DNA from: a virus
UHGV virus genome: UHGV-0279745
DNA length: 64,000 bases
Strand: one strand, 5' to 3'
The translations under genes and the position numbers were made by a program. The number at the start of each line of letters is the position of its first letter. The first letter of the stretch is position 1. Below the pieces are notes generated by a model. It was not told the DNA's origin. It did no database searches and saw only the letters and a program-made list of their open reading frames with translations. Positions 5,104 through 55,812 of this stretch are shown here, piece by piece.

Positions 5104-5748
5104 ATGGTCAATAAAAACTTCCTTAAAGAGAAATGGCTTTACCCGCAGACTGAGCCGGATCAACAGGGCCGTACGCGTAAACTGGGCATTGAACTGAACG
5201 AGTTCAATGGTGATGTGGAACTGATGAAATTCCACTACTCCTTTGGTAAAGGCGAAGGTCTTTATTTCACCGCAGGCTATACCGTTTGCGTTGATATCTT
5301 TGAAACCCTACGTACGGTGATGCAGAAACCCGAAAAAGTTGTTTTCAAATGGGAAGATGCAAAAGGTAAGAAGGCACCGGTTAGCTTACACGTAGGTCGT
5401 GATGAAAACCTGACACCGTTCTTTGCACTGAGCGGCGAGATCCCAGGGGTTGGTGCGCGTCAGAAGAAATTCTATTTCACTTATCCGAAAGGTTATCGTG
5501 TTTTCCGTAATGGACAACTGGTCTCCGATCTGGAACTGGCAGAGCGTCAGCTACGCGCGTTCCTGAAAAATGCGGATGTATTCCTGGAAGATTTCCGTGA
5601 CAACTACAAACCGCGTGAGTTTAATAATGCGGGTGGTGGTAGTTACGGTCGTGGTGGTTACAATAACGGCGGCAATGGCGGCGGTTATAACAACCAATCC
5701 GGTGCAAAAGCCCCAACACCAACTAACGATTTTGACGATATTATCTAA
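5104..5748 (+). CDS. putative single-stranded DNA-binding protein (SSB-like)
   Basis: Gly/Asn/Tyr-rich flexible tail ending in acidic tip NDFDDII, resembling the bacterial SSB DFDDDIPF tail. Strongly optimised codon usage. N-terminal OB fold not verified. Confidence 0.45.
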   Translation: MVNKNFLKEKWLYPQTEPDQQGRTRKLGIELNEFNGDVELMKFHYSFGKGEGLYFTAGYTVCVDIFETLRTVMQKPEKVVFKWEDAKGKKAPVSLHVGRDENLTPFFALSGEIPGVGARQKKFYFTYPKGYRVFRNGQLVSDLELAERQLRAFLKNADVFLEDFRDNYKPREFNNAGGGSYGRGGYNNGGNGGGYNNQSGAKAPTPTNDFDDII

Positions 5749-35550: not shown

Positions 35551-36822
35551 ATGGCAAATTTCGCAAAAACTCGCGCCGCTCGTGAATCGATGGAAGCGGC
35601 CGATGAAGTAATCGACGGTATCAGCAACGTTGAACCGGCAGAAGAGAACCTGGACGTCCAACTTGCGGACGTAGCATCTATCGACGGTCAGCTCGATCAG
35701 CTGGAAACCGACGGTGAAACCCTGGCTGCCGATACCGAGCGTACTGAAGACGCTATCGAACAGGCGGAAGAAGCCGTTGCTAACGGTGAAGAAATGCCGG
35801 AAGAAGCGGTTGCCCTGCACGAAGTGGCACAGGAATCCATCGCACGTCGTTGGTGCCTGGAACGTACTAAGCTGGCTCGCGAATCCTATCGTCGTGGCCG
35901 TGGTATGACTGCTGCTGCCCAGGAAGGTTGGAAAGAAACCCTGAAAGATCTTTACGATCGTTTCATTCAGTTCTGTAAAGAAGTGATTGCGAAGATCAAA
36001 GACCTGAAACTGAAATATTTCAACGTCGGTAAGACCGCACAGAAACGTGCGAAGAAATATCAGGAAATGCTGCGTAAGCTGGGCAAACAGAAGAAAGATG
36101 AGATCTCTGGTGGCTTTATCACCAAGCTGTCTATCGAAGGTAAATTCGATGCTGCTGGCTCTATCGCTATTGCGAAAGAAGTTACCGCAGGTAAAGCTAA
36201 AGGTTCCATCGCTGTTCTGGAAAAACAAGCTGGTGAAGCTGTGACTGCCGTTACCAAAGGTGACGATGACGCATTCAAGGCAATGCGTGGTGATCAGCCG
36301 GTAGAACTGTTTGGTAAAGCTGCTTCTAAACTGCACACTCTGCCGAACTTTGAAAAAGGTGATGCGTCTAAACTGCTGGCTCTGCCGGGCAACGCTTACA
36401 TTCAGGCTGGTACTAAAGAACTGGCTGGCGGCCACAAGTTCACCGCAATTGCTTTCATGAGCACCGGTGACGCTTCTGACGATAAAGACGTGAAAACTCC
36501 GTCTGTTTCTGAAATGGCTGGTGCTGCTTCTGCTCTGGAAGCGATCGGTAAAGGTTTCGAAGCCGTACTGAAAGATTTCCGTGCTTACGATTCTGAAATC
36601 GTGAAGCTGCAACAGGCTGCTGAGAATGCTGCTAAGGCGCTGAACAACGAAAAAGACGATAGCAAGTGGGATGGCCTGCGTAACGCACGTCAAGCTGCCG
36701 ATTGGTCTGTTAAGAACTACCAGACCCTGAACCGCGCAGTTAGCTATGTTGCTAACACCGTTATTAGCGGTCTGAATGGCTACCTGGGTGCTGGTATCGG
36801 TGCTTACGAAAAATCTAAATAA
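35551..36822 (+). CDS. abundant acidic protein, tandem paralog A (virion/inner-body-like candidate)
   Basis: 423 aa with strongly optimised codons; shares an MANF-K-ARESME N-terminus, a central RKLGKQKKDEISGGFI block and a GLNGYL-AGIGAYEKSK C-terminus with 36905-38170. Confidence 0.7.
   Translation: MANFAKTRAARESMEAADEVIDGISNVEPAEENLDVQLADVASIDGQLDQLETDGETLAADTERTEDAIEQAEEAVANGEEMPEEAVALHEVAQESIARRWCLERTKLARESYRRGRGMTAAAQEGWKETLKDLYDRFIQFCKEVIAKIKDLKLKYFNVGKTAQKRAKKYQEMLRKLGKQKKDEISGGFITKLSIEGKFDAAGSIAIAKEVTAGKAKGSIAVLEKQAGEAVTAVTKGDDDAFKAMRGDQPVELFGKAASKLHTLPNFEKGDASKLLALPGNAYIQAGTKELAGGHKFTAIAFMSTGDASDDKDVKTPSVSEMAGAASALEAIGKGFEAVLKDFRAYDSEIVKLQQAAENAAKALNNEKDDSKWDGLRNARQAADWSVKNYQTLNRAVSYVANTVISGLNGYLGAGIGAYEKSK
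36082..36121 (+). repeat. 40-bp perfect direct repeat, copy 1 (shared with 37478-37517)
   Basis: GGCAAACAGAAGAAAGATGAGATCTCTGGTGGCTTTATCA is identical in both paralogs. Confidence 0.8.
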
Positions 36823-36904: not shown

Positions 36905-38170
36905 ATGGCGAATTTCTACAAAAACAAAATTGCTCGTGAGTCTATGGAGTCTACTTCTACTGTAGTTCCAGACGGCATCGAACTGCCAGCAGAATCCGTA
37001 GAAGGCACTCTGGCCGATATCGAGCATGACACCAAACCGATCGAAGCTCTGGACGCTGACGCTGAACTGCTGGCAGAAGACGGCGACGAAACTGACGCTC
37101 AGCTGGATGTTCTGGATGAAGCTCAGGCTGCTGCTGACGGTGAAGGTGCTGGCGAAGACGGTGAAGAACCGATGGACGCCGAAGAAGATATGCCGGACGA
37201 CGCTGCGACTGCGCTGGACGTTGCTCAGGAATCTATCCGTTCTCGTTGGAACTTCGAACACCGTTCTTCTGTTGCTCACGAATCCTACGGTTCTCGTAAC
37301 CGTCGTCAGGTTGCTCGTGAATCCCTGTGGGAAGACATCAAAGCCTTCCTGGGCCGTATTCTCGATTGGCTGAAAGAACAAGGCCGCAAACTGAAAGATC
37401 GCTGGCTGAAATTCCACAACCAGGGTAAATCTATTCAGGCGCGTGCTAAGAAATACGATGAAGTTATTCGTAAGCTTGGCAAACAGAAGAAAGATGAGAT
37501 CTCTGGTGGCTTTATCAAGTCTCTGTCTATCGACGGCAAGTTCGTCGGCGATAATATTCCGAAACTGAAAGGTATCCTTAACCAGGTCTCCTCGTTCTAT
37601 AGCGCTAAGATGCCTGCCATGGCCGCTAAAGCTGCTGAAGTGGTTTCCGATGTTACCAAAGGTAATGGTGTTAAAGTTGAAAAACTGAAAGCCGACTTTA
37701 CCGAACTGTCCAAACAAGACAGTCTCCAAAACTTCAAGCTCGGTAACATGGCGGTGAAAACCGAGTATGACAACGAAGGCGGCTTCAGCTCCACCTTTGT
37801 TGAAGCTGAAAACAGCGTTGAAACTAGCGTGAAAACTCCGTCTGTTGGCGAACTGGCCAAAATCAATGCTCTCTTCAACGAAGTGGGTAAACAGATTGAG
37901 AAAAACGTTCAGGATTATCGTAAAGTCGAAAGCGCGCGTAAAACCTTTGAAGATAATATCGATAAGCTCCTGAAAGAAGTCGATAAAGTTAAGATCGACG
38001 AAAAACCGGAACTGACCGAAGGTGTACGTGCTGCCCGTCGTTTCATCACCAGCGTTAACCAGGGTCTGTCTCTGGGTGAGAAGGTTATTGCTTCTACTCA
38101 GAAACACCTGGCCGGTGGTCTGAACGGTTACCTGAGTGCCGGTATCGGCGCTTACGAAAAATCTAAATAA
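36905..38170 (+). CDS. abundant acidic protein, tandem paralog B
   Basis: 421 aa; paralog of 35551-36822; optimised codons; followed by a strong terminator. Confidence 0.7.
   Translation: MANFYKNKIARESMESTSTVVPDGIELPAESVEGTLADIEHDTKPIEALDADAELLAEDGDETDAQLDVLDEAQAAADGEGAGEDGEEPMDAEEDMPDDAATALDVAQESIRSRWNFEHRSSVAHESYGSRNRRQVARESLWEDIKAFLGRILDWLKEQGRKLKDRWLKFHNQGKSIQARAKKYDEVIRKLGKQKKDEISGGFIKSLSIDGKFVGDNIPKLKGILNQVSSFYSAKMPAMAAKAAEVVSDVTKGNGVKVEKLKADFTELSKQDSLQNFKLGNMAVKTEYDNEGGFSSTFVEAENSVETSVKTPSVGELAKINALFNEVGKQIEKNVQDYRKVESARKTFEDNIDKLLKEVDKVKIDEKPELTEGVRAARRFITSVNQGLSLGEKVIASTQKHLAGGLNGYLSAGIGAYEKSK
37478..37517 (+). repeat. 40-bp perfect direct repeat, copy 2
   Basis: Identical to 36082-36121. 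Confidence 0.8.
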
Positions 38171-38186: not shown

Positions 38187-38235
38187 AAGAGAACCACCCT
38201 GTAATGGGGTGGTTCTCTCTTTTCTTTTTTTTTTC
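38187..38235 (+). terminator. rho-independent terminator
   Basis: Stem AGAGAACCACCC / GGGTGGTTCTCT followed by a 16-nt T-run. Confidence 0.7.
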
Positions 38236-40747: not shown

Positions 40748-40789
40748 CATTTCGCGCCTGTGATATGACTATAACGAAGGAACAAGCCA

Positions 40790-43649: not shown

Positions 43650-43650
43650 C

Positions 43651-44190: not shown

Positions 44191-45509
44191 TGTCGTTTGG
44201 TCGGTTACAGAACATAGCAAACGTGCACATTGCACAAGCGGCGGGATTACCGGCCATCGACTACGTACCCCTTATCACGGTCCGTGGGGTGACGATTGAC
44301 GTTTACAAAACCATGTCGATAATCCATGCCAGTAATTTCGCTCAGGATTTAACGACCATCACGCACCTCAGTGTGGTGATTCCACTGAGCCAGCAACGTA
44401 TTCTTACGTCGTCAGCAGAAGGGGATTTATCAGTTAAAATCCTGATGCGGACAATGAACAAGAAAACCATTGCGCAACTGAACTACCGAGGAATTGTGGT
44501 TAACAACCACGATCCAGATATGGAATCACCTACAATGTTTTTGGGTGAATCTGACCAAAAAGGGTTGGGCGTGGTAACGTTGGAACTGATGGACGAATCG
44601 ATGTGGTTCCTTCGTTGTCGTCAGGTAGGTGGGATTTACCACGAAACCGATGGATTAAGTGTCGTTCGTGCATTACTTGCAGATACGTTACCTACCGGGG
44701 ATGCACCAGAAGGTCAGTTGGTTGGTGTGGAATACGAGGAAGAAGAACAACAGCCTTATCGCGACATTTTGATTCCCGATTCGCAAAGTTTTCTTTCGGT
44801 TTTCGATTTCATTCAGAACCGCTACGGTGTGTATAGCCAAGGATTAGGTGTCTTCTTGTATAAACACCGTTGGCATATCTTTCAACCGTGGGATTCTAAG
44901 AAATTCTCTTCGGCAAAAAAGAAACTGGTGGTAATTAACCTTCCCAGAGAGAAAGTTGCCTATTTAGATAAAACGTGTCACATTGCAGGTGACGTCATTT
45001 ATCTGATTTGTGGTGGCGATGTTCACACCTTCGAAGACAAAGACGCCCTTGCGCTAAATCAGGGAACGGGTTACCGCGTGGGTTCAATCCGTGCCTTAGA
45101 CGGACGTGCAAGTTCTTTCTCTCCAGGCGACGTTTCAGCAACGACGTCAGATTCGTTTGTTTCGGCAGCAGACCCTACACAGTACCCCGGTGGTGTTGTT
45201 AATGCGCCTATTGATCCAAACGAGCACTTCAGCGACACGGATAAGCCTCGTCGTTCTAAGTTGGCTGCCGCCAGAGGGACACTGACCGCAACGACCTGGA
45301 ACCGTTCAGCGTACGGTTTATTGCAGCCGGGTATGGCAGTAAAATATCTGTATGCGAATAATTACGGTGTATACACTCGTTATGGGACGTTGGTTGGTGA
45401 AGTTTTCCAAGCTGCCGTTGACGGTGGTTCGATGGCGTCCCCACAATTTAATACCATTAGTCAATTGACGTTGTGGTTGACTAATGAAAAATTTACAACC
45501 GCTACGTAA
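44190..45509 (+). CDS. hypothetical protein
   Basis: 439-aa ORF; RBS GGAGGA; start overlaps the upstream stop. Confidence 0.6.
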   Translation: MSFGRLQNIANVHIAQAAGLPAIDYVPLITVRGVTIDVYKTMSIIHASNFAQDLTTITHLSVVIPLSQQRILTSSAEGDLSVKILMRTMNKKTIAQLNYRGIVVNNHDPDMESPTMFLGESDQKGLGVVTLELMDESMWFLRCRQVGGIYHETDGLSVVRALLADTLPTGDAPEGQLVGVEYEEEEQQPYRDILIPDSQSFLSVFDFIQNRYGVYSQGLGVFLYKHRWHIFQPWDSKKFSSAKKKLVVINLPREKVAYLDKTCHIAGDVIYLICGGDVHTFEDKDALALNQGTGYRVGSIRALDGRASSFSPGDVSATTSDSFVSAADPTQYPGGVVNAPIDPNEHFSDTDKPRRSKLAAARGTLTATTWNRSAYGLLQPGMAVKYLYANNYGVYTRYGTLVGEVFQAAVDGGSMASPQFNTISQLTLWLTNEKFTTAT

Positions 45510-45541
45510 ATTATGTCGTCCGTAACCTAAAGGATTTGTTA

Positions 45542-46342
45542 ATGAGTAATCTACTTACTTTCAGAATGTCTGGCCAAACGTTAATTCAAATCGACAAGTT
45601 CGAAGAAGAGAATTTTTCGAAACCGTCGAAGTTGTTAGAACGTTGCCTTAATGTTATTCCCGGTGGCGAACAACGCCAGTTGGATTACATCATGGCGTCC
45701 AGTGCTGACAAAACGATTTCTGTTATTTATACCGTAGACGGTGTACAGAATTGTCGCTTATTACCAATCGAAGAAAAAGGGACGTTAGGTCATTTGTTGT
45801 TCCTGCACGCGATCACAACTGCCGTGGTGTCTGGTGCTTTAGAAGCGCAATACGGCTTTGCTTATTGTTACTTCTATGCTCAGAAATTAGCTGCAGCGGT
45901 TATTCCAGGGCAACAAGAAACCTATCCTCAGTATATTGAACGTATTCTCCCTTCACACTTTAGTGAGTCGGAAGACTACGACTTCAATGCGTTTCGTTTT
46001 ACCGTGGTGGGCGAAGCCCGCGATCCTGAATACACAACAGCGGTTCGTGCGGTGGTGCGCTATTCTGTTATTTCTACAGACAGCGGTACATCAAATAACT
46101 TTAATGAAGTGTATCCGGTCTTGCAGTTAGGTCCTTATGTGACTTTCAACAGCTACGTACCATTCAGTTGTCAGCTTGTGGGTCCGCAGGATAACGATTC
46201 TATTCTCCCTGTTGCGGAAGAAAAGTCATTGTTTATTCGCGAATCTGTAGAAGCTATTAGCGATAAGCGCTTTATGATTTCTTCGAAGACGGGCATTAAC
46301 GATCCTGAAATCGCTGTAATGGATAAGATGCAAGGTCTGTAA
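45542..46342 (+). CDS. hypothetical protein
   Basis: Start at ATG 45542 preceded by CCTAAAGGA. Confidence 0.55.
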   Translation: MSNLLTFRMSGQTLIQIDKFEEENFSKPSKLLERCLNVIPGGEQRQLDYIMASSADKTISVIYTVDGVQNCRLLPIEEKGTLGHLLFLHAITTAVVSGALEAQYGFAYCYFYAQKLAAAVIPGQQETYPQYIERILPSHFSESEDYDFNAFRFTVVGEARDPEYTTAVRAVVRYSVISTDSGTSNNFNEVYPVLQLGPYVTFNSYVPFSCQLVGPQDNDSILPVAEEKSLFIRESVEAISDKRFMISSKTGINDPEIAVMDKMQGL

Positions 46343-46346
46343 AAAC

Positions 46347-46390
46347 TTCCCGTTACCTCTATGGGTAACGGGAATACCTTTTATTTATTC
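46347..46390 (+). terminator. rho-independent terminator
   Basis: Stem CCCGTTACC / GGTAACGGG followed by a T-rich tract. Confidence 0.55.
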
Positions 46391-46504
46391 CTAAACGACA
46401 CGCAGAAGTCATTTAACCGTTAAGACGACTAATTACCCTTTAAAAAGAAAATTGCGTCAGAATGCGTTTTAGAGCGTTCTAGAGGGTATATGGATTCAAA
46501 AAGA

Positions 46505-46546
46505 TTTCAGATATATATTACCTAGGTGAGAGTTTACGTAATACTC
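46505..46546 (+). promoter_or_regulatory. candidate phage promoter (TATATTAC core), second copy
   Basis: Same 27-nt element as 38248-38274; TATATTAC at 46514-46521; imperfect inverted repeat downstream; about 64 nt upstream of ATG 46578. Confidence 0.5.
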
Positions 46547-46577
46547 ATTTATCGAATACCTAATTAGGAGTTATATC

Positions 46578-46721
46578 ATGATTTCTGTAAAACACAAAAA
46601 AGCTATCTTCGCTGTTGTTATCGCTGTTGTTCTGGGCTGCCTGTATCTGGACATCGACAAAGGCTACGACACTTGCATTGACAACGGTAATTCCGTTGCA
46701 CAGTGCACTGGTCGCGGTTAA
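46578..46721 (+). CDS. putative small lipoprotein or membrane peptide (47 aa)
   Basis: Not in the ORF track (under 60 aa). RBS AGGAG; n-region KHKK, hydrophobic AIFAVVIAVV, lipobox-like VLGC, three Cys in the predicted mature part; optimised codons; followed by terminator at 46726-46758. Confidence 0.45.
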   Translation: MISVKHKKAIFAVVIAVVLGCLYLDIDKGYDTCIDNGNSVAQCTGRG

Positions 46722-46725
46722 TGTA

Positions 46726-46758
46726 TAAGGCACCTTCGGGTGCCCTTAATTTTTTTAT
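46726..46758 (+). terminator. rho-independent terminator
   Basis: Stem AAGGCACC / GGTGCC(C)TT with TTCG loop, followed by a T-run. Confidence 0.55.
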
Positions 46759-46775
46759 TAATTGGAGCATAAAAG

Positions 46776-47591
46776 ATGATTACCATTAAAGATTATTTTC
46801 CGCGTGGACTGAGCAATGAAAACTTCGTTCCAACTGAAGACATTGCCATCGTAACAGAGTCTAGTGATAAGTCTTTTAAACTCTACTTGAGTACGGCAGC
46901 AGGAAAATCCACTCTTATCCTTCGCGAACCTGAGGTGATAAGCATCTGCTCGTTTGGGGGCGGTGTAGAAGGAACGATTAATTGGTTGAAATCCAGAATG
47001 CATCGTTTGCTTATCGTGAACACCGATCCTGTGATTCGTTTACAGCAATTGAAATCGTTGAATGAAGTTATCGTCGGATTATTGGAACATGAAATGTTCG
47101 GTAATGCTGCGATTGCGGAAGAGATTAAATCTGTAGAACTAATCGAGTGGAGTGATATCGAATACGAACGTGCTGCGTTATTCGCAATGTACGGTGACGA
47201 TAATCCTGTTGTGTTTGCACAAACATTAGATAACGTTACAGTAACAGCGCGCGTATTGTTTGGCTTACAGCGTGTTGAGTTTGAACTGAAACACGTTTAT
47301 GTAAGTAATGCTCCAGAGATGGTGGAAACGTTGACTCGTGCGTTCGCTTACCCGTTAGACGGAGAATGGGAACAGCAGATTAATGAAGCGTTAGGTGCGA
47401 TGCTGTTCTTAGCAGGCACACTAAGGAAAGAAGAGAAATTAGAAGGTCGTGTCTATCCAGAATACGATTTTGTTTGTGAAGAATGTGGAGCACAGTATCA
47501 AATACGTGTTCCTTTAACCGGCCTGACAATCCCGAAAGCCAACGTGCAATGTAAGGAATGTGGTCATGTTCAATACGTAGCGATTAAATAA
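46776..47591 (+). CDS. hypothetical protein with C-terminal CxxC...CxxC zinc-ribbon-like motif
   Basis: 271-aa ORF; RBS GGAG; C-terminus CEECG-(x22)-CKECG. Confidence 0.6.
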   Translation: MITIKDYFPRGLSNENFVPTEDIAIVTESSDKSFKLYLSTAAGKSTLILREPEVISICSFGGGVEGTINWLKSRMHRLLIVNTDPVIRLQQLKSLNEVIVGLLEHEMFGNAAIAEEIKSVELIEWSDIEYERAALFAMYGDDNPVVFAQTLDNVTVTARVLFGLQRVEFELKHVYVSNAPEMVETLTRAFAYPLDGEWEQQINEALGAMLFLAGTLRKEEKLEGRVYPEYDFVCEECGAQYQIRVPLTGLTIPKANVQCKECGHVQYVAIK

Positions 47592-47604
47592 AAGCAACCC
47601 CTAA

Positions 47605-47650
47605 TCCCGAAAAGGATTAGGGGTACACTTTATTTATTTTCGCATTTTCA
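47605..47650 (+). terminator. rho-independent terminator
   Basis: Stem CCCCTAATCC / GGATTAGGGG followed by a T-rich tract. Confidence 0.6.
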
Positions 47651-47667
47651 ACATAGGAGAAAAGTTC

Positions 47668-47826
47668 ATGAAACATGAACAGTTGTTTCAAAGGCTAAAC
47701 GAGTTGTCCGTAAAACAGCTCGAATTTCAACGAAGGGTTAGTGAAATAGCGCAACCAACGTTAACTCAGCCCAAAGTTGCTTATCCAAGAAACACCCAGT
47801 TGATAGTTGAAAGGAGAAGTAACTGA
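47668..47826 (+). CDS. hypothetical small protein (52 aa)
   Basis: Not in the ORF track; RBS AGGAGA 7 nt upstream of the ATG; followed by a hairpin cluster. Confidence 0.35.
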   Translation: MKHEQLFQRLNELSVKQLEFQRRVSEIAQPTLTQPKVAYPRNTQLIVERRSN

Positions 47827-47833
47827 TAAAAAA

Positions 47834-47922
47834 CAAGGGGTGTGTCAGCACCCCTTTTCTTAGCTTTAACTTTTCCGAAGAGAAGTTAAAGCAAGGTACG
47901 CTGCACCAACAGCGTACCTTTT
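47834..47922 (+). terminator. cluster of three consecutive stem-loops (terminator or structured RNA)
   Basis: Hairpins AAGGGGTG/CACCCCTT (47835-47856), CTTTAACTT/AAGTTAAAG (47864-47891) and GGTACGCTG/CAGCGTACC (47895-47918) followed by TTTT. Confidence 0.45.
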
Positions 47923-48114
47923 ACAGCACCATTACGGAAACGTAATGGATTTCTTTAATCACCCTACAAAGAGGGCTTATACCATGAACAATGGTTACTA
48001 CTTTACTGACAAAATGCTTGCAGAACAGAGTGCAACAGAGACTGGCGGAACAGTCTCTGCTGTACGGTGTCAACACATAAAGTTGTTGACGTTTTTACAA
48101 CATTACGAAAGGTA

Positions 48115-48282
48115 ATGAAAATGAACGAATATCAAATACAGATGTTCAATACCGCGATGCGAAATCGTGAAAAACAAATTCAGTTTAACCAACGCATGGA
48201 CGAATATGTTCGTCTCGGCCTCGTTGCGGCACCGAAAACGGTTAACAACCACAATGTTCACCAACCACCTGTAAGGAGATAA
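48115..48282 (+). CDS. hypothetical small protein (about 55 aa)
   Basis: ATG at 48115 or 48121 with GAAAGG upstream; the track's GTG-extended version is 48067-48282; followed by a hairpin at 48299-48319. Confidence 0.35.
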   Translation: MKMNEYQIQMFNTAMRNREKQIQFNQRMDEYVRLGLVAAPKTVNNHNVHQPPVRR

Positions 48283-48424
48283 GTTACTAACTAATAAAGG
48301 GGGTGTTGCTACCACCCCCTGCTTAGTTCGGTAGTTGTTTTCCATTCATAATTAATAGTCTTCTGTTTTTTTTTGCTTTCCGAGACGCATAAGGGGTTAT
48401 AGGGGGAGCCGAAGCTCCCCAGAC

Positions 48425-49987
48425 TCAAAAGAGTTCGTCACCCATGCCGCCGGTAAATACGTTAATCGACGAGGCTGTTACAGTTTCTTCTTTATCACAA
48501 TCCCATGGCAAAATGCCAACATCACGGAAAGGTATTACAGTATAATGATAAGCTTCTTTGGTATCAATAATTGTACGGTGTTTACCGCGTTGTACTTCTA
48601 AATAACTGTGTCCGCTGACGACACGTTTGTTAAAATACATCTCACCGTCAGCTTCGTTGTCTAAGCTAGAGCAGTTGTCGTAAAGACCACGACCAGGTAA
48701 GCTCTTACAGAAACTTGCTGGGTCGAGTGCTTTTAATTTTTTGCCTTCTGGTGAGATTTGGTGTGGTGCTAAGAGGAAACCACGATTACGTACCACTTGG
48801 ATGTTTCGCGCGATACGATAAATTTCTTTAATGTCACTACCCGCAATACCGTTACCGTGCCCTGCTTTGCTGATAGTACCGAAATAGTCTCCGCGTATTC
48901 CAGCTACATGATAACCTCGACGTTTTAAATCTAAAATCAAATCATTCAAATAGTGAATTTTAAAATCGGAGTTTGTGTGCTTTTGGAAAATATACTCCCA
49001 ACCGTTTGCCCGCATTTTACTACAGAGGTAATCTGACATTTGTGCATTGTGTAGCGCTTTTTCTTCGTCAGTTGCCGTTTCAGGTGCAACCATTACCGGA
49101 GCTGTACCTTCAAAGTGTCCGTAAAGTGCTTGATACGCGTAAGCCAAGTTAACATCTAATTCGTTTTCTAAACTTAAATCCAGAATAACCGGCTGTAAGT
49201 CACCTTTAACATTCGCCATCACCTTTTCTGGGGTGTTGAATACAGGTATGCTAATAGAGAGCAATAAACTGAATAATGACTTACAGTTAAAGGGCAGTGC
49301 AGGCATCAGCCAGAGTTCTTCGGTGATCCCTTTGTTACAGCCAAGCATTTGGTTAATTGCTTTCCACCCCGTACGTAACCCGTTCCCCGCTGCTTTCTTA
49401 CTGATAGAGTCGAATACATGTACGAAGGGTGCTTTATTGTCAGTAATCAATTCCCCTACCAGAGAAGGAATCTTATTATGAGAGCGTTCACTGAACGTGG
49501 ATAAGGTATCCTTAAGGTCGTTGAGCGCCGTTTGTAAATCAACACGCGTTTCAGTGCCGTTCAGTGCGCCTAACGTACGACCCAATTTTTGTTTCAGTTG
49601 TACGCCTTGAATAGCTTGACGTAACTGAAAGTAGTATTGTGCTACTTGGCGATTAAGATGCTCGATGCGTGCTTCTGGTTCTTCTGGAATATCATCTTCC
49701 AGGAATTTGGTAATCGTATCGTATAGAGGACGTATTTGCGTAGTGGCCAGTTTCAAACGTTTCATGACGTTTGTGTGGTCGTAAGGCATACCGCCGTCTA
49801 TGATGGATGTGATGATATCCTTGATTTCGACGAGGGCGGCACGTTCGTCACCTTCTTCTGCGTAATCAGGAAGCTTAGCCTCTAACAGCACTTTTCTTAT
49901 GATGTCGTGGTCCTTTTCAGGATCGGTCAGAAGACTTTCAGCGTATAATGTGGCTAAGGCGGTTATCAACATCATTTTGTTATTCAT
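48425..49987 (-). CDS. hypothetical protein (520 aa, function not recognised)
   Basis: Long minus-strand ORF set among + genes; no nucleotide-binding or catalytic signature that I can assign with confidence. Confidence 0.6.
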   Translation of the reverse strand: MNNKMMLITALATLYAESLLTDPEKDHDIIRKVLLEAKLPDYAEEGDERAALVEIKDIITSIIDGGMPYDHTNVMKRLKLATTQIRPLYDTITKFLEDDIPEEPEARIEHLNRQVAQYYFQLRQAIQGVQLKQKLGRTLGALNGTETRVDLQTALNDLKDTLSTFSERSHNKIPSLVGELITDNKAPFVHVFDSISKKAAGNGLRTGWKAINQMLGCNKGITEELWLMPALPFNCKSLFSLLLSISIPVFNTPEKVMANVKGDLQPVILDLSLENELDVNLAYAYQALYGHFEGTAPVMVAPETATDEEKALHNAQMSDYLCSKMRANGWEYIFQKHTNSDFKIHYLNDLILDLKRRGYHVAGIRGDYFGTISKAGHGNGIAGSDIKEIYRIARNIQVVRNRGFLLAPHQISPEGKKLKALDPASFCKSLPGRGLYDNCSSLDNEADGEMYFNKRVVSGHSYLEVQRGKHRTIIDTKEAYHYTVIPFRDVGILPWDCDKEETVTASSINVFTGGMGDELF

Positions 49988-50000
49988 GGAGCATCCTTAA

Positions 50001-50525
50001 ATGCAAATTCGTTTTAGTCCACCGTGGGAAGTTCAACCTAACATAGATAAAGGCGCTGCCGTTAAAAGTATAGAATTGCTCCAGGCAGGGTTCTTTAACT
50101 GGTTATATGACTGTCCGAATGGTTTCAGTTCTATTATCTTACCTGAAGTAAGTCGTTCTGCTATTTATAAAGCACTGATGGCTCCGCCTGTGCTTCCAGG
50201 TAAATATTATGATCAGGTGTTACGTCTGGTCGAATCAGGCGAAAAGGTTTCCCTTGACGATTTATATGGGGAAACAATTCCTTGTCGCGTACGTTGGGTG
50301 TTTACTCAACGTGGTGATACGATTGTGGCGTCATTTGCAGAAGCGAAGTCCGGTTCGGGTTTTTCTTCGGGTGAAGACCACGCTGCGAAAAAGATGTTCT
50401 GCGCAGAACTTTTTAAATATATGCGTACCAAGACTCGCGTCGTGGATGACTGCTTCAGTACCTCAACGCAGTTTGCCGCTAACGAAGTGCTGACGCAATT
50501 ATACGCATGTCATTTATCTCATTAA
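50001..50525 (+). CDS. hypothetical protein
   Basis: 174-aa ORF; RBS GGAG; divergent from the 48425-49987 gene with a 13-bp spacer. Confidence 0.55.
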   Translation: MQIRFSPPWEVQPNIDKGAAVKSIELLQAGFFNWLYDCPNGFSSIILPEVSRSAIYKALMAPPVLPGKYYDQVLRLVESGEKVSLDDLYGETIPCRVRWVFTQRGDTIVASFAEAKSGSGFSSGEDHAAKKMFCAELFKYMRTKTRVVDDCFSTSTQFAANEVLTQLYACHLSH

Positions 50526-50537
50526 GGTATTAAACAA

Positions 50538-52832
50538 ATGAAAGATACCCGAATCTCTAATCTGGAGAAACTCGTACAAGCTGGTAACTCGCTGGTACAA
50601 AGCGTCATTAGTAACAACAGTGCTGGCGAAATGTGGAACACCATCGTTGCTGGTGAGTCTGTACGTAGCAACACGAAAGTTTTTGGTACCCTGCGTGACG
50701 ATGCTGCACAGCACTACGCAAACGCGTTTGCTGGCGGTAAGAAAATGTCCCACGCTGCGGAAGTTGCTTCTGCAATGATTCTGGGTGCTGCTGGTCACGG
50801 TATGGACCTGCAAGAAAAAGTAGCGCAAGAATACGCTAAGCCAGAATTCCATAGCCGTTTTAACCTGGACGTTGCGATTCCTGGTTCCCAAGCTGGTAAC
50901 GGCGACTGGGGCAAAGAGCGTATGGTTGTTGCTCAGGAATACTACACCAACAAAGATTACGACAAAAACCTGGGTCTGACCTGGACGCTGAACGTACGTG
51001 CTCTGGAAACTCAGTCTCGTTTTGCTGAGACTCTGTTCCCGACCATCACCGTTGACACCAACGATGTTGGTATTACCGTACGTACCAAAGTGACCACCGT
51101 TTCTCGTGGTGTCATGCACGCGTTACTGACCAAAGACGTTGTTGAAGATCATCGTCGTAACCTGCACGAAGCGCTGACTGACCACACCGTTCTTCAGGAC
51201 GAAGCGATCAACATCGTTCCTTACGTAATGGAAACCGGTGAAAACGCTGAATACTTCGTAAGCGAAGAACTGGTACCGAACGAATCTGTTCGCCTGGGTC
51301 GTGTACCTCCGTACCCGACTAACTACCTGAGCTTTGCTAAAGACACTCTGAACCTGTTCCAGCTGTCTGCGCATCCGGGTATCGTTCAGGAAGGTTACGA
51401 CGAAACTGATGAAATCGCACCGGGTTGTGCTCTGGGCAGCCTGCTGATTTCCGTACGTAAACCGACCGAAGAAGCGAAAGCAGGTAAATTCATCAAACTG
51501 CACGTTCGTGACATGCAGTTCGCAACCTTCCAGCGTCCTGCTGAAGGTGATGGCCGTGAGCTGGTACTGCAATTCCGTCGTACTGCGTTCTCTCTGAATG
51601 CGAAAACCACCGACTGGAAAGGCGAAGCTATTCCGGCACTGAAATCACTGGAACAGAACTCCTACACCCTGCGTTATGTGATCACCATCAACATGTCTCT
51701 GTTCACTACCGGTCAGTTCGGTGGTAAAGTTGACATCGCTGGTCACAAACTGGAAATCGAAGGTCTGTACGACGCTACCGGTAACAAAGTTGATACCAAA
51801 TCTGGTACCGGCAAAGTTATCCTGGACGGTCTGAAACTTGAACTGATGGGCTGGCGCTTCGATGGTACTCGTACCAACGAAAACCGTCGTACCCAGGGTC
51901 TGCTGCTTGACCCAATCTGGGAACAAGAAAACTACAAACTGCAATACGGTTCTCCGATCCTGACCAAGTCTCCGGTTGGCGTTGAATACGACGATACCGA
52001 ACGTCTGGACGACCTGATTTCCGCAGTTAACATCCGTAACGAACAGCTGGCTATCACTCAGACGCTGTCTTACACCGAAGCGGTACGTAACGCTGCTGCA
52101 AGCATGATCACTCCGTGGGACAAACCGGCCATTCGTGGTCTGGGCCGTCACTGGGTTGCTCCGTGGTTCAAAGAGTCTGACTACAACGTTGATGAAGTTG
52201 TACAGTCCCTGGATACCAAAGATGCACTGATCAACGCTCGTCAGGGCCTGGTACAGCGTATCGGTAATCAGGTAACTCAGGCTATCCAGGAATCTCGCTT
52301 CATTCCTGCGCTGCGTCTGTACACTGCCGATCCGGACATTCTGCCGAAAGTTGTTATTGCAACTGACGAACCGACTGCATCTATGCTGCTGCTGGTACAG
52401 GGCGACCAACGTCTGCTGGGCGATCGCTACGAATACGAAGTGATCACCACCAACGATGACCGCTGGCGTATCTACAACGCAGCTGACGGTTCCTGGACTC
52501 GTCGTCTGCAATGGTTCCTGAAAGTTCCGACTGCGGACGATGGTTCCTACAACGTGCTGAACTGGGGTAACCACTTCTGGTCTCCGATCATGGTTACCAA
52601 CATCAACATTCAGCGTAACGGTTCTACCTCTAAAGAGCTGGCTGTACAGCCGCGCAACGCGCACATCTGCCACTGCCCGATCACTGGTCTGATCTGGGTT
52701 AAAGGCATCACCAAACTGGTTGAAGAAAAACTGGCTTACAATGTTTCTGTTGAACAGAACGGTCAGAAACAAACCGAAGGTGGTGTAGCAGGTAACGTTG
52801 CTGGCGAAGGCAAAGCTGCTGCTGGTAAGTAA
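50538..52832 (+). CDS. very highly expressed structural protein candidate (major capsid or tail sheath; identity unresolved)
   Basis: 764 aa; extreme preferred-codon usage (ctg, cgt, ggt, aac, gaa) producing long stop-free antisense frames; RBS AAGG; followed by a strong terminator. Confidence 0.8.
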   Translation: MKDTRISNLEKLVQAGNSLVQSVISNNSAGEMWNTIVAGESVRSNTKVFGTLRDDAAQHYANAFAGGKKMSHAAEVASAMILGAAGHGMDLQEKVAQEYAKPEFHSRFNLDVAIPGSQAGNGDWGKERMVVAQEYYTNKDYDKNLGLTWTLNVRALETQSRFAETLFPTITVDTNDVGITVRTKVTTVSRGVMHALLTKDVVEDHRRNLHEALTDHTVLQDEAINIVPYVMETGENAEYFVSEELVPNESVRLGRVPPYPTNYLSFAKDTLNLFQLSAHPGIVQEGYDETDEIAPGCALGSLLISVRKPTEEAKAGKFIKLHVRDMQFATFQRPAEGDGRELVLQFRRTAFSLNAKTTDWKGEAIPALKSLEQNSYTLRYVITINMSLFTTGQFGGKVDIAGHKLEIEGLYDATGNKVDTKSGTGKVILDGLKLELMGWRFDGTRTNENRRTQGLLLDPIWEQENYKLQYGSPILTKSPVGVEYDDTERLDDLISAVNIRNEQLAITQTLSYTEAVRNAAASMITPWDKPAIRGLGRHWVAPWFKESDYNVDEVVQSLDTKDALINARQGLVQRIGNQVTQAIQESRFIPALRLYTADPDILPKVVIATDEPTASMLLLVQGDQRLLGDRYEYEVITTNDDRWRIYNAADGSWTRRLQWFLKVPTADDGSYNVLNWGNHFWSPIMVTNINIQRNGSTSKELAVQPRNAHICHCPITGLIWVKGITKLVEEKLAYNVSVEQNGQKQTEGGVAGNVAGEGKAAAGK

Positions 52833-52844
52833 TCTTGCTTAAAA

Positions 52845-52890
52845 AGAGTCTAAGCCCTTCGGGGCTTAGACCTTTTATTTTTTTTTTCTT
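52845..52890 (+). terminator. rho-independent terminator
   Basis: 10-bp stem GTCTAAGCCC / GGGCTTAGAC with TTCG loop, followed by an 18-nt T-rich run. Confidence 0.75.
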
Positions 52891-53015
52891 TCTATTATTT
52901 TTTGGATAGATATTATTAAAGGGAGACGGCCAGTTGGTTTTAAAGGAGTATGTATGGAAAAAATACAGTTTAAACTAAAGATATGTGTCATCATTAAAAT
53001 TTAGCTTGGGTTCCC

Positions 53016-54026
53016 ATGAAACGTCTTGATATTGATGTGGTGCCCAGTATCTCTGAACGCTCGTTATGTCAAACGTCTGGATTGAGGAAACTTGTTACGT
53101 TTGAAAATAACACTGGCGTGCCTATCCACGTCACTGAAACCAGTGGCGGTAGCTTTATTTTAAATGCTTCGAAAAACCCCGCTGATGAGCATGGGGTTAT
53201 CGTTTACGTGACGTATCAATCGTACGGAAGATGCGCGAATCTCAATGGGTTTGCTGAACTGATGCCGGGAAAACAGTTTTCTCGCTTTTGCGACCAATTG
53301 AAAGAAAAAGGGGAGGTAACGTTAGAGTATGCAGTAAACGACGTTGGTGCGTTGCTGCGAGGAGATTTGGTTGTACTAAAGCAGTTAGGCTTTGCTTTCT
53401 CAACAACACCGATACGCTTAGATAGTAAACCCCCAACTATGCGCCCTGGAGGTGAGCGCACTGAATTTACATTGGGTGTTGTTGTTGTGCAGCGCTACGA
53501 CGAGCCTGACAATTATCGGTGGCTACGTTTCTACGGTACGAAAATGAAAATCGAACCAATAACGTCACGCTATTATGAACCGGGCGTTTACATGATAATA
53601 GGAGGTGGAACGAGGGTGGAAGGGAGTCGAATGATTCATTTTGAATTTGACGACATTACTTCACCGTTTAGATTATTTAAGGATGAGGCAGCGGCGGACG
53701 CGTTTCGATGGCAAGAAGCAGTTCCCGGTCTCTTTGAGATTAAGCAACGTTTAGAGGAGCAGTACAAAGAAAAATTAGAAAGCTTGGATTCGGCAAAAGA
53801 CAAGTTAGAATTGGAACACAAGAAACAACTACAGAGCATGGCTTTAGAAAAGGAGCGATTGACTTTAGCATTCAAGCAACAGGAATTGGAAGCGAAGTCA
53901 CGGGCTGAGGCGCGTAAAGAATTCTACGAGACGCGTTCTTACATTCGTAAGGACGGCTCAGACCTATTTAAATCTGTCCCTGCGTATTTGGCGGCGGGTG
54001 TCGCATTTATAGGGATGCTAACGTAA
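53016..54026 (+). CDS. hypothetical protein with C-terminal coiled-coil-like region and hydrophobic tail
   Basis: 336-aa ORF; charged heptad-like region followed by AYLAAGVAFIGML at the C-terminus. Confidence 0.55.
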   Translation: MKRLDIDVVPSISERSLCQTSGLRKLVTFENNTGVPIHVTETSGGSFILNASKNPADEHGVIVYVTYQSYGRCANLNGFAELMPGKQFSRFCDQLKEKGEVTLEYAVNDVGALLRGDLVVLKQLGFAFSTTPIRLDSKPPTMRPGGERTEFTLGVVVVQRYDEPDNYRWLRFYGTKMKIEPITSRYYEPGVYMIIGGGTRVEGSRMIHFEFDDITSPFRLFKDEAAADAFRWQEAVPGLFEIKQRLEEQYKEKLESLDSAKDKLELEHKKQLQSMALEKERLTLAFKQQELEAKSRAEARKEFYETRSYIRKDGSDLFKSVPAYLAAGVAFIGMLT

Positions 54027-54036
54027 GGAGCATGGC

Positions 54037-55812
54037 GTGTTTAAAGATGCAATCAAAAAGCTTAAAGAGAACGGTAAAATAGTACCCTTTAACCGTGCGA
54101 TTGCGGAAGGAGTCGGTTATACACAAGCCAAAGATGGTATTCACGATCGTGTACATCGTATCTTGAAACGTGAGCTAGATTACCATCCTGTAGAGAACCC
54201 TCGTGTTCCTGAAGGCTTGGCCGTGTTGGGTGTTCGTTTAATGTCGCCGTTCGAAACCTTTATCTATAAGCTGTCTCGTTCAGAGAGCAGCAGGATGGAT
54301 AAGCGTCGTGGTGTGATGTCTATCGCGAATACCGATGCGTATATGGTCATGTCGTCGTTCCGTATTCCTGGAGACTCAAGACCAATCTCAAGACCGATTA
54401 ACTTGCCTTTCATTCGTCGTGGTGGGTTGATGAACTATTACGGAACAACGTACCATGTTGCACCTGTTATTCATCAGCCGGGTATCTGTCGTGAGCACGG
54501 CGGGGTGTTTGTTAATTTTGACTTTAAACGTAAAGCGTCATTAAAATTCTGTAAGCACCCGGTACGGATTTTAGTGAATGGGAAGAAAGAAGAATTGTTC
54601 TTGCCCGGAACAAACAATCTGTTTAAAGCCAAAAACGCCACACATCCTGACACGGACGAAAAGCCGTTAATGTACTGGCTATTCGGGCGTTATGGATTTA
54701 AGGAAGCCATCAAACGTTATACTGGCGTGGATGTGGAGATATATCCTGCATTCAAAGTACCTGAAATCGATCTCGATAAAAAAGTAGTAATCAGTTCAGG
54801 TGAGCCTAAACATAATCGGACGATTATGTACGTAGTGACGGTTCCTGCAGAGGCTTTACCAAATCTCGATAAAGCGGGATGGGATCAAAACGAGCACTTA
54901 TTACTCGTGGCGATTTCTGCATTCTTTAAAGCAGCGCACTATTATTGCGGAAAGCAAGCGATTAAAAACGGCAACGTTGTTCCTTTACCGCCGTTGTTTA
55001 CCGCGATTAACGAACTTGCAATGGAGGACGATGTTGTAAACCTGAATTCCTCCGCAATTTGGCGGGAGATTTTGGGGAGAAGTATTGTTGGACTTAAACC
55101 GTCCGATATTGAACTGGCACACAGCATGACGAAGCACTATACGGAGTGCGAACGCTACGTTAACTCAACATTCCGTGGTGAGTTAATGATGTCAGATCCC
55201 GATATCCCGGACGATATGGATATGTTTGATTTCTTCTGGTACGCGACGAAGTTGATGGTGAGAACACGCCTTACGAAACAAGGTGATATTCCGTCAATGT
55301 ATGGAAAACGTCTGACCGTAACAGATTATCTGTTATTGGGTGAGCGTGGCTTTACGCCTACCATCGCAGCGATTCGTTTCCACTTGGGACAAACGGAAAA
55401 TCGAACACCGGAGTCTTGTGCGAACATGATACGTAGTGCGTTGAATAAAGACATTGTAACTAGCCTGGTATTACGCAACATTACCGGCAATGGCGGTGTA
55501 AGTTATTTCAACGCTTCTACCGAGTCTATGGTGCTGGGGGTTTCAACCCATGCTATCAGCCAGACAGAAACAGAATCCAAACGTAACAGCAAAGGCGGTA
55601 AGACGGTTAACCTTAATGACCGGACAAAACATGCCTCTGCATCTCATCTGGAATGTGGCAACGTGTATTACATTCCGAAATCATCACCGTTTAAATCGGG
55701 TATTCTCAATCCGTATATGAAGACGAACACCCAACTGGTGATGGTACGTAATCCAAAACTCAACGAGTTGATCCAAGCAACCGAAGAAGACATTGCGAAG
55801 ATTGGCCGTTAA
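54037..55812 (+). CDS. hypothetical protein
   Basis: 591-aa ORF starting at GTG 54037, 6 nt after RBS AAGGAG. Confidence 0.55.
   Translation: MFKDAIKKLKENGKIVPFNRAIAEGVGYTQAKDGIHDRVHRILKRELDYHPVENPRVPEGLAVLGVRLMSPFETFIYKLSRSESSRMDKRRGVMSIANTDAYMVMSSFRIPGDSRPISRPINLPFIRRGGLMNYYGTTYHVAPVIHQPGICREHGGVFVNFDFKRKASLKFCKHPVRILVNGKKEELFLPGTNNLFKAKNATHPDTDEKPLMYWLFGRYGFKEAIKRYTGVDVEIYPAFKVPEIDLDKKVVISSGEPKHNRTIMYVVTVPAEALPNLDKAGWDQNEHLLLVAISAFFKAAHYYCGKQAIKNGNVVPLPPLFTAINELAMEDDVVNLNSSAIWREILGRSIVGLKPSDIELAHSMTKHYTECERYVNSTFRGELMMSDPDIPDDMDMFDFFWYATKLMVRTRLTKQGDIPSMYGKRLTVTDYLLLGERGFTPTIAAIRFHLGQTENRTPESCANMIRSALNKDIVTSLVLRNITGNGGVSYFNASTESMVLGVSTHAISQTETESKRNSKGGKTVNLNDRTKHASASHLECGNVYYIPKSSPFKSGILNPYMKTNTQLVMVRNPKLNELIQATEEDIAKIGR

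Follow-up and report, generated by a model that had tools for sequence, protein, structure and literature searches.

Phage genes for head and tail proteins use host-preferred codons (Lucks et al. 2008, PMC2266997). In phage SPN3US, gp75, gp53 and gp54 are three highly abundant head proteins; gp75 is present in 1560 copies, and gp53 and gp54 together in more than 1200 (PMC5694885, PMC7552025). The gp75 protein is cleaved at the site ATE-130 (PMC5694885, Table 1). With respect to non-structural proteins, ChmC (PhiPA3 gp61, phiKZ gp67, Goslar gp176) is a nucleus-associated RNA-binding protein that has been reported as the second most abundant one in PhiPA3 (bioRxiv 10.1101/2023.09.22.559000).

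The DNA studied here, called the window, is a stretch of 64,000 nucleotides of the virus genome UHGV-0279745. An initial annotation singled out a 764-aa gene, a pair of tandem paralogs and an "SSB-like" gene, whose use of preferred codons was described as so uniform that their antisense strands are nearly free of stop codons. The products were proposed to be the likely most abundant proteins, under host-matched translational selection. The features discussed below are collected in Table 1.

Table 1. Features of the window, with coordinates in the 64-kb stretch.
Feature	Position	Strand	Length	Remarks
ChmC-type Whirly-fold nucleic-acid-binding protein (predicted)	5104..5748	+	214 aa	
Shadow ORF opposite paralog 1	35506-36693	-	395 aa	
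Internal head / ejection protein paralog 1, SPN3US gp53 ortholog (by homology)	35551..36822	+	423 aa	PF12699, phrog_2497
Shadow ORF opposite paralog 2	36887-38197	-	436 aa	Exceeds the real gene opposite in length
Internal head / ejection protein paralog 2, SPN3US gp54 ortholog (by homology)	36905..38170	+	421 aa	PF12699, phrog_2497
Strong terminator-like hairpin and T-run	38188..38228	+		14-bp stem; directly after paralog 2
Shadow ORFs opposite the capsid gene (three)	50514-51119, 51123-51572, 51645-52772	-	201, 149, 375 aa	Codon-register frame
Major capsid protein gene (by homology)	50538..52832	+	764 aa	phiKZ gp120 / SPN3US gp75 family
Predicted N-terminal propeptide of the capsid protein	50538..50939	+		gp75 alignment and A-x-E motif scan
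Intrinsic-terminator-like hairpin and T-run	52848..52890	+		Terminator scan; 10-bp GC-rich stem, TTCG loop

Identity of the codon-biased genes

The 764-aa ORF is present exactly as described earlier. Its product matches the Pfam family PF25620 (PhiKZ_MCP) with 696.3 bits (cut-off 27, E=4e-209) over profile positions 2-634 of 635, and phrog_3231, "major head protein", with E=1e-280 over positions 1-744 of 746. In a PDB sequence search the four matches obtained (E from 7e-50 to 6e-34), phiKZ gp120 (8y6v) among them, are all major capsid or head proteins of jumbo phages. Amino acid identity with SPN3US gp75 is 78%. Judged from these matches, the product is a major capsid protein of the phiKZ type and the ortholog of SPN3US gp75. 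The initial annotation had left its identity open between capsid, sheath and another abundant protein; the PF25620 and phrog_3231 matches settle the question in favour of capsid, and together with the PDB matches they rule out a tail sheath or other abundant protein. In isolate assemblies this protein is labelled "hypothetical protein". The end of its predicted propeptide, AQE-134, lines up with the gp75 cleavage site ATE-130 (pairwise alignment and A-x-E scan), and the capsid protein of the present phage would be cleaved there.

The tandem paralogs belong to the phiKZ_IP family: paralog 1 matches PF12699 with 243 bits and phrog_2497 with E=1e-147, and paralog 2 with 195 bits and E=9e-120 (cut-off for PF12699, 27 bits). 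Paralog 1 is 68% identical in amino acids to gp53 and paralog 2 is 63% identical to gp54, the identity between the two paralogs being 39%. A motif scan shows that AQE-95 and AQE-125 of paralog 1 correspond to the published gp53 cleavage sites, and both paralogs begin with MANF.K...ARESME. By homology, they are the gp53 and gp54 internal head (ejection) proteins.

Codon usage and host match

With codon adaptation index (CAI) weights derived from 30 E. coli K-12 ribosomal-protein, EF-Tu, EF-G and rpoA genes, the capsid gene ranks first in the window for codon adaptation (CAI 0.792, Nc 32.2, Fop 0.73). It is accompanied by paralog 1 (CAI 0.772, Nc 31.4) and paralog 2 (CAI 0.727, Nc 35.7), and these three are the only strong outliers, since the next Nc value is 40.1 and the rest lie at 45-61. 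The median CAI of the window is 0.38, from which the three genes stand apart at a robust z of 6-7; in E. coli, the highly expressed genes cover a CAI range of 0.55-0.84. The preferred set consists of CTG, CGT, GGT/GGC, GCT, GTT, ACC/ACT, TCT/TCC, CCG, GAA, AAA, ATC, TTC, TAC, AAC, CAC and CAG.

The synonymous-codon fractions of the three genes correlate with those of the E. coli highly expressed set at r=0.97, and the top codon is the same for 18 of 18 amino acids. The remaining phage genes in the window resemble the weakly expressed genes of E. coli (r=0.87). The borders of the bias are sharp: on the same strand, the gene located 12 nt upstream of the capsid gene has a CAI of 0.42 and the downstream gene one of 0.29, with GC3 values of 0.38 and 0.44, respectively, and 0.52 in the capsid gene. 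The CAI of other virion proteins in the window is 0.36-0.41, and that of a portal-family protein 0.43. Thus, the bias follows copy number and not the "structural" class.

The initial annotation had also called for the CAI to be computed against candidate hosts. The host codon sets used were those of E. coli and two other Enterobacteriaceae, and a comparison based on fusA covered 81 proteobacteria. In the latter, the three Enterobacteriaceae rank 1-3 as the best codon match within a set that was obtained from one contig scan with E. coli EF-G and consists mostly of arbitrary proteobacteria, with few Enterobacterales. Members of the same 90%-identity protein clusters as the window's proteins occur on contigs of 220-227 kb in isolate assemblies of Shigella, Salmonella, E. 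coli and Enterobacter. Host-matched translational selection on the three genes is therefore well supported, by the correlation with E. coli (at CAI values of 0.73-0.79) and by the related copies in enterobacterial isolate assemblies, as the initial annotation had proposed. The codon bias points to an Enterobacteriaceae host, in agreement with where the proteins occur. The fusA set itself is a specificity control, which cannot separate Salmonella, Shigella, Escherichia and Erwinia.

The relation between codon bias and abundance can be followed in SPN3US. For 22 of its virion proteins, CAI rises with the spectral count normalised to mass (rho=0.80, P=9e-6), and the genome-wide CAI ranking shows the same pattern as that of the window. 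The SPN3US orthologs of the 764-aa gene and of the paralogs are the most abundant head proteins, which bears out the proposal that these genes encode the likely most abundant proteins; the "SSB-like" gene, however, is only moderately biased. High abundance of the three proteins in the present phage is thus probable by transfer from orthologs that are 63-78% identical. The third gene in the SPN3US ranking, SPN3US_0022, gave only an unnamed PHROG, and Pfam and PDB sequence searches returned no match that would identify it as chimallin; that equation depends on the RefSeq tag ACQ60_gp244 being the same as "gp244" of PMC9365700.

Expression signals

Both transcription units, that of the capsid gene and that of the paralogs, close with strong terminator hairpins. 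The one behind the capsid gene starts 16 nt past the stop codon, and the one behind paralog 2 is the top-ranked terminator site in the region 34800-54200. The capsid gene is preceded by a weak Shine-Dalgarno sequence (AAGG), whereas a gene with the highest expression would naively be expected to have a stronger one. Fewer sigma-70-like sites occur than in shuffled sequences (17 vs 29.7), a scarcity that is compatible with transcription by a phage RNA polymerase. No tRNA genes were found within the 64-kb window; the genome has about 225 kb, and tRNA genes of the phage may be located outside the window, as SPN3US carries two.

Stop codons on the antisense strand

The shortage of antisense stops is confined to the codon-register frame, the other two antisense frames being normal. 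Opposite the 764-aa gene, this frame contains 2 stops in 763 codons, whereas the other two contain 30 and 39. In each of the paralogs it contains none, as against 15 and 29 in the other frames of paralog 1 and 14 and 29 in those of paralog 2. The numbers expected in register, conditioned on the Leu/Ser content of each gene and on window-wide synonymous usage, are 27.1 for the 764-aa gene and 13.0 and 14.7 for the paralogs (Poisson P of 7e-10, 2e-6 and 4e-7). Synonymous resampling of the 764-aa gene, repeated 3000 times, never gave 2 or fewer stops. The two that are present arise from only two sense codons, TTA at 51123-51125 and TCA at 51645-51647.

Consequently, the description of these antisense strands as nearly stop-free is correct for the 764-aa gene and the paralogs, in one frame of the three, and incorrect for the "SSB-like" gene at 5104-5748, which has 3 antisense stops where 5.9 are expected (P=0.16) and no antisense ORF of at least 100 aa opposite.

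The gene at 5104-5748

This gene shows moderate codon adaptation (CAI 0.576, fourth in the window, and Nc 40.1). Its protein has a Gly/Asn-rich disordered tail with the acidic tip NDFDDII, and gave no Pfam match and no PDB sequence match. Searches by tblastn found nothing beyond the SPN3US/Erwinia-phage group; the ChmC proteins of phiKZ and Goslar were reached only by profile comparison. In hhalign, the alignment with phiKZ gp67 has a probability of 95.5% (E=1.4e-8, 89 columns). The gene also shares its position with that of gp67, since both lie two genes after an SbcD-like nuclease (order SbcD-x-gene). An AF2 model (pLDDT 78.7) predicts two beta-sheet-plus-helix repeats, the tail residues 174-214 being below pLDDT 50, and the best Foldseek matches of this model, PUR-alpha, SsgB and MRP1/2, are weak (E=5e-3, TM 0.32-0.44).

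Profile comparison and predicted structure identify the protein as a ChmC ortholog, a putative RNA-binding protein of the Whirly fold. Its raised CAI fits the abundance of ChmC in PhiPA3. The label "SSB-like" has to be abandoned, as hhalign, AF2 and Foldseek point to a ChmC-type Whirly fold instead of an OB-fold SSB. The OB-fold candidate found no family match, the predicted fold is a tandem of beta-sheet-plus-helix units, and only the Gly-rich, acidic-tipped tail is SSB-like.

Origin of the codon bias and of the shadow ORFs

In the preferred account, the window belongs to a jumbo phage of Enterobacteriaceae that is uncultivated and SPN3US-like ("Seoul-like", Chimalliviridae). About 1560 copies of the capsid protein would be needed per virion, if the T=27 capsid of SPN3US is taken as a guide, and the capsid and internal head proteins would be required in far greater amounts than the other proteins encoded in the window. 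As the window is devoid of tRNA genes, the host would supply the ribosomes for their mRNAs and most of the tRNAs. Selection for rapid and accurate translation would then lead to the enterobacterial highly-expressed codon set, with non-optimal codons nearly gone. Since TTA, CTA and TCA are the reverse complements of stop codons, their removal would keep the codon-register antisense frame open and give rise to long non-coding shadow ORFs. Translational selection is thus the probable cause of the bias, and the whole account, from the capsid and internal head genes to the shadow ORFs as a side effect, is in our opinion very likely correct. Selection for speed, for accuracy and for mRNA stability are not separable by codon bias.

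A different reading of the antisense frames, which remain open over 375-436 aa, is that they are real overlapping genes and that TTA, CTA and TCA are avoided to keep them open. Translated antisense overlaps have been reported in bacteria, and the SPN3US capsid gene likewise lacks in-register antisense stops. However, the open frame is limited to the codon-register one, exactly as codon bias predicts, and the avoidance is general: TTG, ACA, GGG, GGA, CCC, ATA, CGG, AGA and AGG are not used either. With at least nine codons unrelated to antisense stops at zero, the avoidance is not directed at the three that would create them. The same open frame, resulting from TTA/CTA/TCA avoidance, is found in E. 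coli tufA (0 in-register stops in 393 codons) and fusA (2/703), and rplB is alike (0/272), the gsp genes having about 3 per 100 codons. The shadow ORFs opposite the capsid gene have no match in Pfam or PHROG, and for those opposite the paralogs a single marginal PHROG hit below threshold (E=0.045, 35506-36693) and nothing in Pfam was obtained. The 436-aa ORF is called by no gene caller in public assemblies, where no gene with this product is recorded. Compared with SPN3US, antisense amino acid identity is 0.59 vs 0.78 for the sense product at the capsid locus, and 0.46 and 0.44 vs 0.68 and 0.63 at the paralogs, with the substitutions concentrated at the third sense position, corresponding to the first antisense one. 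Dedicated overlapping genes are therefore extremely improbable, and we judge the shadow ORFs to be non-coding by-products of TTA/CTA/TCA avoidance. A broader proposition, that at least one antisense ORF of 375-436 aa is translated or that the unusually complete adaptation derives from the long-term "persistent" coexistence of Seoul-like phages with their enterobacterial hosts, is highly improbable; if translated, such ORFs would count among the longest phage genes that overlap another gene in antisense.

The bias could also come from mutation and composition (GC3, strand asymmetry, amino acid content) or from recent transfer out of another genome, given that neither GC content nor skew is constant along the window and that the GC3 of the capsid gene is the highest among genes of at least 100 codons, save one 100-codon ORF (0.54). 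Nevertheless, the GC3 values of the three genes (0.46-0.52) fall inside those of the others (0.34-0.54), whereas their Nc values are far outside. Moreover, the preferred codons end in T, C, G and A (GCT, GTT, CGT, ACC, CTG, GAA, AAA), a mixture that reflects the tRNA pool and not base composition; Nc in relation to GC3 and this codon mix rule out GC3 or amino acid composition as the cause. The same-strand neighbours are unbiased, the stop expectations already take Leu and Ser content into account, and the SPN3US orthologs are equally biased, which indicates that the bias is old and maintained. An origin in composition or transfer is accordingly very improbable. We attach a similarly small probability to the view that mRNA stability, co-translational folding or the timing of late expression, and not protein yield, is the main benefit of the bias. 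The strong hairpins that end both units could also stabilise the mRNA, and codon adaptation in the capsid gene is lower over the first 100 codons (CAI 0.63) than over the remainder (0.77-0.86, about 0.8), as in a 5' ramp. Against this view, the other late or structural genes of the window are unbiased, and in SPN3US the CAI goes up with copy number; in addition, such effects could coexist with translational selection, since they would act through the same optimal codons.

Under the preferred account of translational selection, the observation offers no new mechanism: the phenomenon is textbook knowledge and the gene family is a known one. It provides a worked example in which the capsid protein and the two internal head proteins made in bulk are recognisable by codon bias alone, followed by the ChmC-like protein. 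This is useful for host prediction and for annotation, for instance of proteins labelled "hypothetical protein" in isolate assemblies, and it carries a warning for annotators, since the shadow ORF at 36887-38197 is larger than the real gene opposite.

Comparison with known systems

The closest described system is SPN3US. Its capsid locus and the present one have in common a DnaB-like helicase gene, a 174-aa gene, the capsid gene, a 336-aa gene and a polymerase gene. The capsid proteins share a full-length family match and an aligned A-x-E protease site, and the codon bias is equally extreme (gp75, CAI 0.777, Nc 33.2 and 0 antisense stops). However, nucleotide identity is only about 81%, which indicates that the present phage is a distinct species or genus, and the only sources from which it is known are metagenomes and contigs of isolate assemblies. 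The SPN3US gp53 and gp54 genes (phiKZ_IP, PF12699) are likewise tandem paralogs, with the N-terminus MANF...ARES.E and AQE motifs at the same positions, and the codon bias of these genes is very strong in both phages, although the proteins are 63-68% identical.

The predicted product of 5104-5748 resembles ChmC in its Whirly-like fold, in a disordered N/G-rich tail at the C-terminus whose end is acidic, and in its SbcD-linked position, but its tail is shorter and the sequence likeness escapes tblastn and Pfam. With respect to the bias of phage head proteins described by Lucks et al. (2008), the one reported here is the same in kind, and its degree is high, the CAI being that of the ribosomal-protein genes of the host.

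Identity of the strongly biased genes

The initial annotation left open whether the 764-aa protein was a capsid, a sheath or another abundant protein. Two profiles identify it: Pfam PF25620 (PhiKZ major capsid protein gp120; 696 bits, whole profile covered) and phrog_3231 ("major head protein", E=1e-280). Its PDB sequence relatives, phiKZ gp120 (8y6v) among them, are exclusively major capsid proteins of jumbo phages. These matches settle the question: the protein is the major capsid protein. The tandem paralogs 1 and 2 are phiKZ_IP internal head proteins (matches to PF12699 and phrog_2497).

The protease sites are conserved with those of the Salmonella jumbo phage SPN3US. The capsid AQE-134 aligns with ATE-130 of gp75, AQE-95 and AQE-125 of paralog 1 coincide with the published gp53 cleavage sites, and AHE-126 of paralog 2 aligns with AQE-124 of gp54.

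Coordinates of the genes and features discussed, with stops counted in the antisense codon-register frame (the minus-strand frame aligned with the sense codons)
Feature	Position	Strand	Stops observed	Stops expected	Poisson P	Nc	Remarks
Capsid gene (764 aa)	50538-52832	+	2	27.1	7e-10	32.2	ORF confirmed in sequence
Paralog 1	35551-36822	+	0	13.0	2e-6	31.4	
Paralog 2	36905-38170	+	0	14.7	4e-7	35.7	
"SSB-like" gene (214 aa)	5104-5748	+	3	5.9	not significant	40.1	Gly/Asn-rich C-terminal tail, tip NDFDDII
Shadow ORF opposite capsid gene	50514-51119	-					In register with sense codons
Shadow ORF opposite capsid gene	51123-51572	-					In register with sense codons
Shadow ORF opposite capsid gene	51645-52772	-					In register with sense codons
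Shadow ORF (436 aa)	36887-38197	-					
Terminator-like hairpin and T-run	52848-52871						Strong; after capsid gene
Terminator-like hairpin and T-run	38188-38218						Strong; after paralog 2
Interval holding the phrog_8266 gene (174 aa)	49988-50537						
Small-ORF region	46343-48424						AT-rich (GC about 0.41), small ORFs only, several strong hairpins

Codon usage and host match

CAI was calculated with weights from 30 E. coli K-12 genes (ribosomal-protein genes, rpoA, tufA and fusA). The capsid gene and paralogs 1 and 2 reach 0.79, 0.77 and 0.73, respectively, against a window median of 0.38; the reference genes themselves score 0.55-0.84 and the cryptic gsp genes 0.24-0.40. Their GC3 (0.46-0.52) is unexceptional, and the next lowest Nc in the window is 40.1, the remainder being 45-61. 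The three genes use CTG for 89% of Leu and CGT for 84% of Arg, and also favour GGT/GGC, GCT, GTT, ACC/ACT, TCT/TCC, CCG, GAA, AAA, ATC, TTC, TAC, AAC, CAC and CAG, while TTG, CTA, ACA, GGA, GGG, CCC, ATA, AGA, AGG and CGG are absent.

The host-matched translational selection proposed in the initial annotation is supported by these data. The correlation in synonymous fractions between the three genes and the E. coli highly expressed set is r=0.97 and the top codon is identical for 18/18 amino acids, whereas other phage genes of the window are closer to weakly expressed E. coli genes (r=0.87). In a specificity control with fusA of 81 proteobacteria, the best three matches were Kosakonia, Scandinavium and E. 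coli, followed by Aeromonas and Sodalis, with Pseudomonas, Burkholderia, Legionella and others far behind. Independent evidence agrees with this match: members of the 90%-identity clusters of the three proteins, which also occur in many metagenomes, sit on 220-227 kb contigs in assemblies of NCBI isolates, namely Shigella flexneri, E. coli, Enterobacter ludwigii and many serovars of Salmonella enterica. One Shigella flexneri assembly carries both paralogs as exact sequences. A 2025 preprint (bioRxiv 10.1101/2024.12.31.630880) describes "persistent" Seoul-like jumbo phages, to which this phage appears to belong. The window contains no tRNA genes.

The bias has sharp borders: CAI is 0.42 in the 174-aa gene that ends 12 nt before the capsid gene and 0.29 in the gene that follows it. 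Within the capsid gene, CAI is 0.63 in the first 100 codons (50538-50837), which fall mostly inside the predicted propeptide, versus 0.77-0.86 in the remainder. Either a 5' ramp or reduced selection on a propeptide that is discarded could account for this.

Open antisense frames

The earlier observation that the antisense strands of these genes are nearly stop-free is valid for the codon-register frame of the capsid gene and the paralogs, but not for the other two frames, which contain 30 and 39 stops in the capsid gene, 15 and 29 in paralog 1, and 14 and 29 in paralog 2. Expected numbers were conditioned on the Leu and Ser content of each gene and on window-wide synonymous usage. No depletion at P<0.02 was found in the remaining genes of the 55 called in the window; in the "SSB-like" gene the count is not significantly low. 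In 3000 synonymous resamplings of the capsid gene the mean was 29 antisense stops and none (0/3000) had two or fewer; the two observed derive from the sense codons TTA at 51123 and TCA at 51645.

Antisense TAA, TAG and TGA in codon register correspond to sense TTA, CTA and TCA, which are three of many purged non-optimal codons. Their depletion is no greater than that of other non-optimal codons, and the open frame is thus attributable to this general purge. The same effect is seen in E. coli, where tufA has 0 codon-register antisense stops in 393 codons, fusA 2 in 703, and rplB and rpsC none, compared with about 3 per 100 codons in gsp genes. Shadow ORFs are a known by-product of strong codon bias. 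That they might be genes was rejected on four grounds: Pfam gave no match and PHROG no credible one, differences from SPN3US are mainly at sense third positions (280 of 515 in the capsid gene), amino acid identity to SPN3US is 0.44-0.59 in antisense frames versus 0.63-0.78 in sense frames, and no public assembly records a gene for the 436-aa antisense product. The latter ORF exceeds the real internal-head gene opposite (421 aa), and a longest-ORF gene caller would choose the wrong strand there.

Transcription signals

Terminator-like sites are in 2.5-fold excess in 34800-54200 (48 versus 19 in shuffles), and sigma-70-like sites are rarer than in shuffles across the region. The capsid gene begins 12 nt past the end of the phrog_8266 gene, whose start is 13 nt from a divergent DnaB-like helicase gene. 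Since this leaves no intergenic room for a promoter, that of the capsid gene must sit within a neighbouring coding region. The small-ORF region corresponds to the SPN3US small-gene block gp66-gp72, and its hairpins at 46347-46374, 47597-47624 and 47893-47920 are readable as terminators on both strands.

A ChmC-type protein

The SSB label was suggested by the Gly/Asn-rich tail and its acidic-hydrophobic, conserved tip. Codon bias in this gene is elevated (CAI 0.576, fourth in the window) but moderate rather than extreme. The protein, "hypothetical" in public records, has no Pfam match and no PDB sequence match. Its AlphaFold2 model (11 homologs; pLDDT 78.7; 103 residues at 90 or above) shows two beta-sheet-plus-helix repeats and a disordered tail, with weak best PDB fold matches to PUR-alpha, SsgB and MRP1/2 (E=5e-3, TM 0.32-0.44), all of them Whirly-like folds. 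ChmC of Chimalliviridae has a Whirly fold, an N/G-rich disordered C-terminus and RNA binding, and in PhiPA3 it ranks second in abundance among non-structural proteins (bioRxiv 10.1101/2023.09.22.559000). The family profile matches phiKZ gp67 (ChmC) with an hhalign probability of 95.5%, and in each phage the gene comes second after that of the SbcD-like nuclease. From predicted fold, tail, profile match and synteny, the protein is identified as a ChmC ortholog; an OB-fold SSB was rejected, given the lack of Pfam and PDB matches, the predicted Whirly-like fold and the gp67 match. The reported abundance of ChmC fits the elevated CAI.

The annotated ChmC-like homolog of Salmonella phage SPFM9, SPFM9_00272, has sequence blocks permuted relative to all other homologs, pointing to an artefact of assembly or annotation in that record.

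Comparison with SPN3US

Where the window can be aligned to the SPN3US-like jumbo phages of Salmonella, Escherichia, Proteus and Erwinia, nucleotide identity is about 77-82%. The window follows, collinearly, the SPN3US genes from about gp23 to gp83. Across the capsid region, identity to every record in the phage collection stays within about 82%. The capsid gene is orthologous to gp75 (78% amino acid identity), paralog 1 to gp53 (68%) and paralog 2 to gp54 (63%).

The SPN3US genome was joined from five pieces and 229 ORFs were ranked by CAI. The first four are gp75 (0.777, major capsid protein), gp53 (0.751, internal head protein), SPN3US_0022 (0.730; 617 aa; RefSeq ACQ60_gp244) and gp54 (0.714, internal head protein), followed in ranks 5-8 by gp252, gp255 (tail tube), gp29 and gp141 (0.619-0.669). 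SPN3US_0022 (15768-17621 of the SPN3US sequence) has no antisense stops, and its ortholog would fall just upstream of the window start. Judging from locus tags, it is very probably the nuclear-shell protein chimallin, named "gp244" in PMC9365700. SPN3US chimallin has been cited as YP_009153538 (bioRxiv 10.1101/2024.12.31.630880), but the 617-aa protein is YP_009153316; GenBank and RefSeq tag numbering may have been mixed up.

According to the literature, gp75, gp53 and gp54 are the three highly abundant proteins of the SPN3US head, with 1560 copies of gp75 and jointly more than 1200 of gp53 and gp54 (PMC7552025, PMC5694885). Among the 22 virion proteins listed in Table 1 of PMC5694885, CAI and spectral count per mass rise together (Spearman rho=0.80, P=9e-6). 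These orthologs and this correlation support the proposal that codon bias marks the likely most abundant proteins. Portal-family and other virion proteins of the window have ordinary CAI (0.36-0.43), indicating that the bias follows copy number and not a late or structural class. The gene families are already known and the phage clade already described, and the use of host-preferred codons in abundant phage structural genes is long established (PMC2266997).
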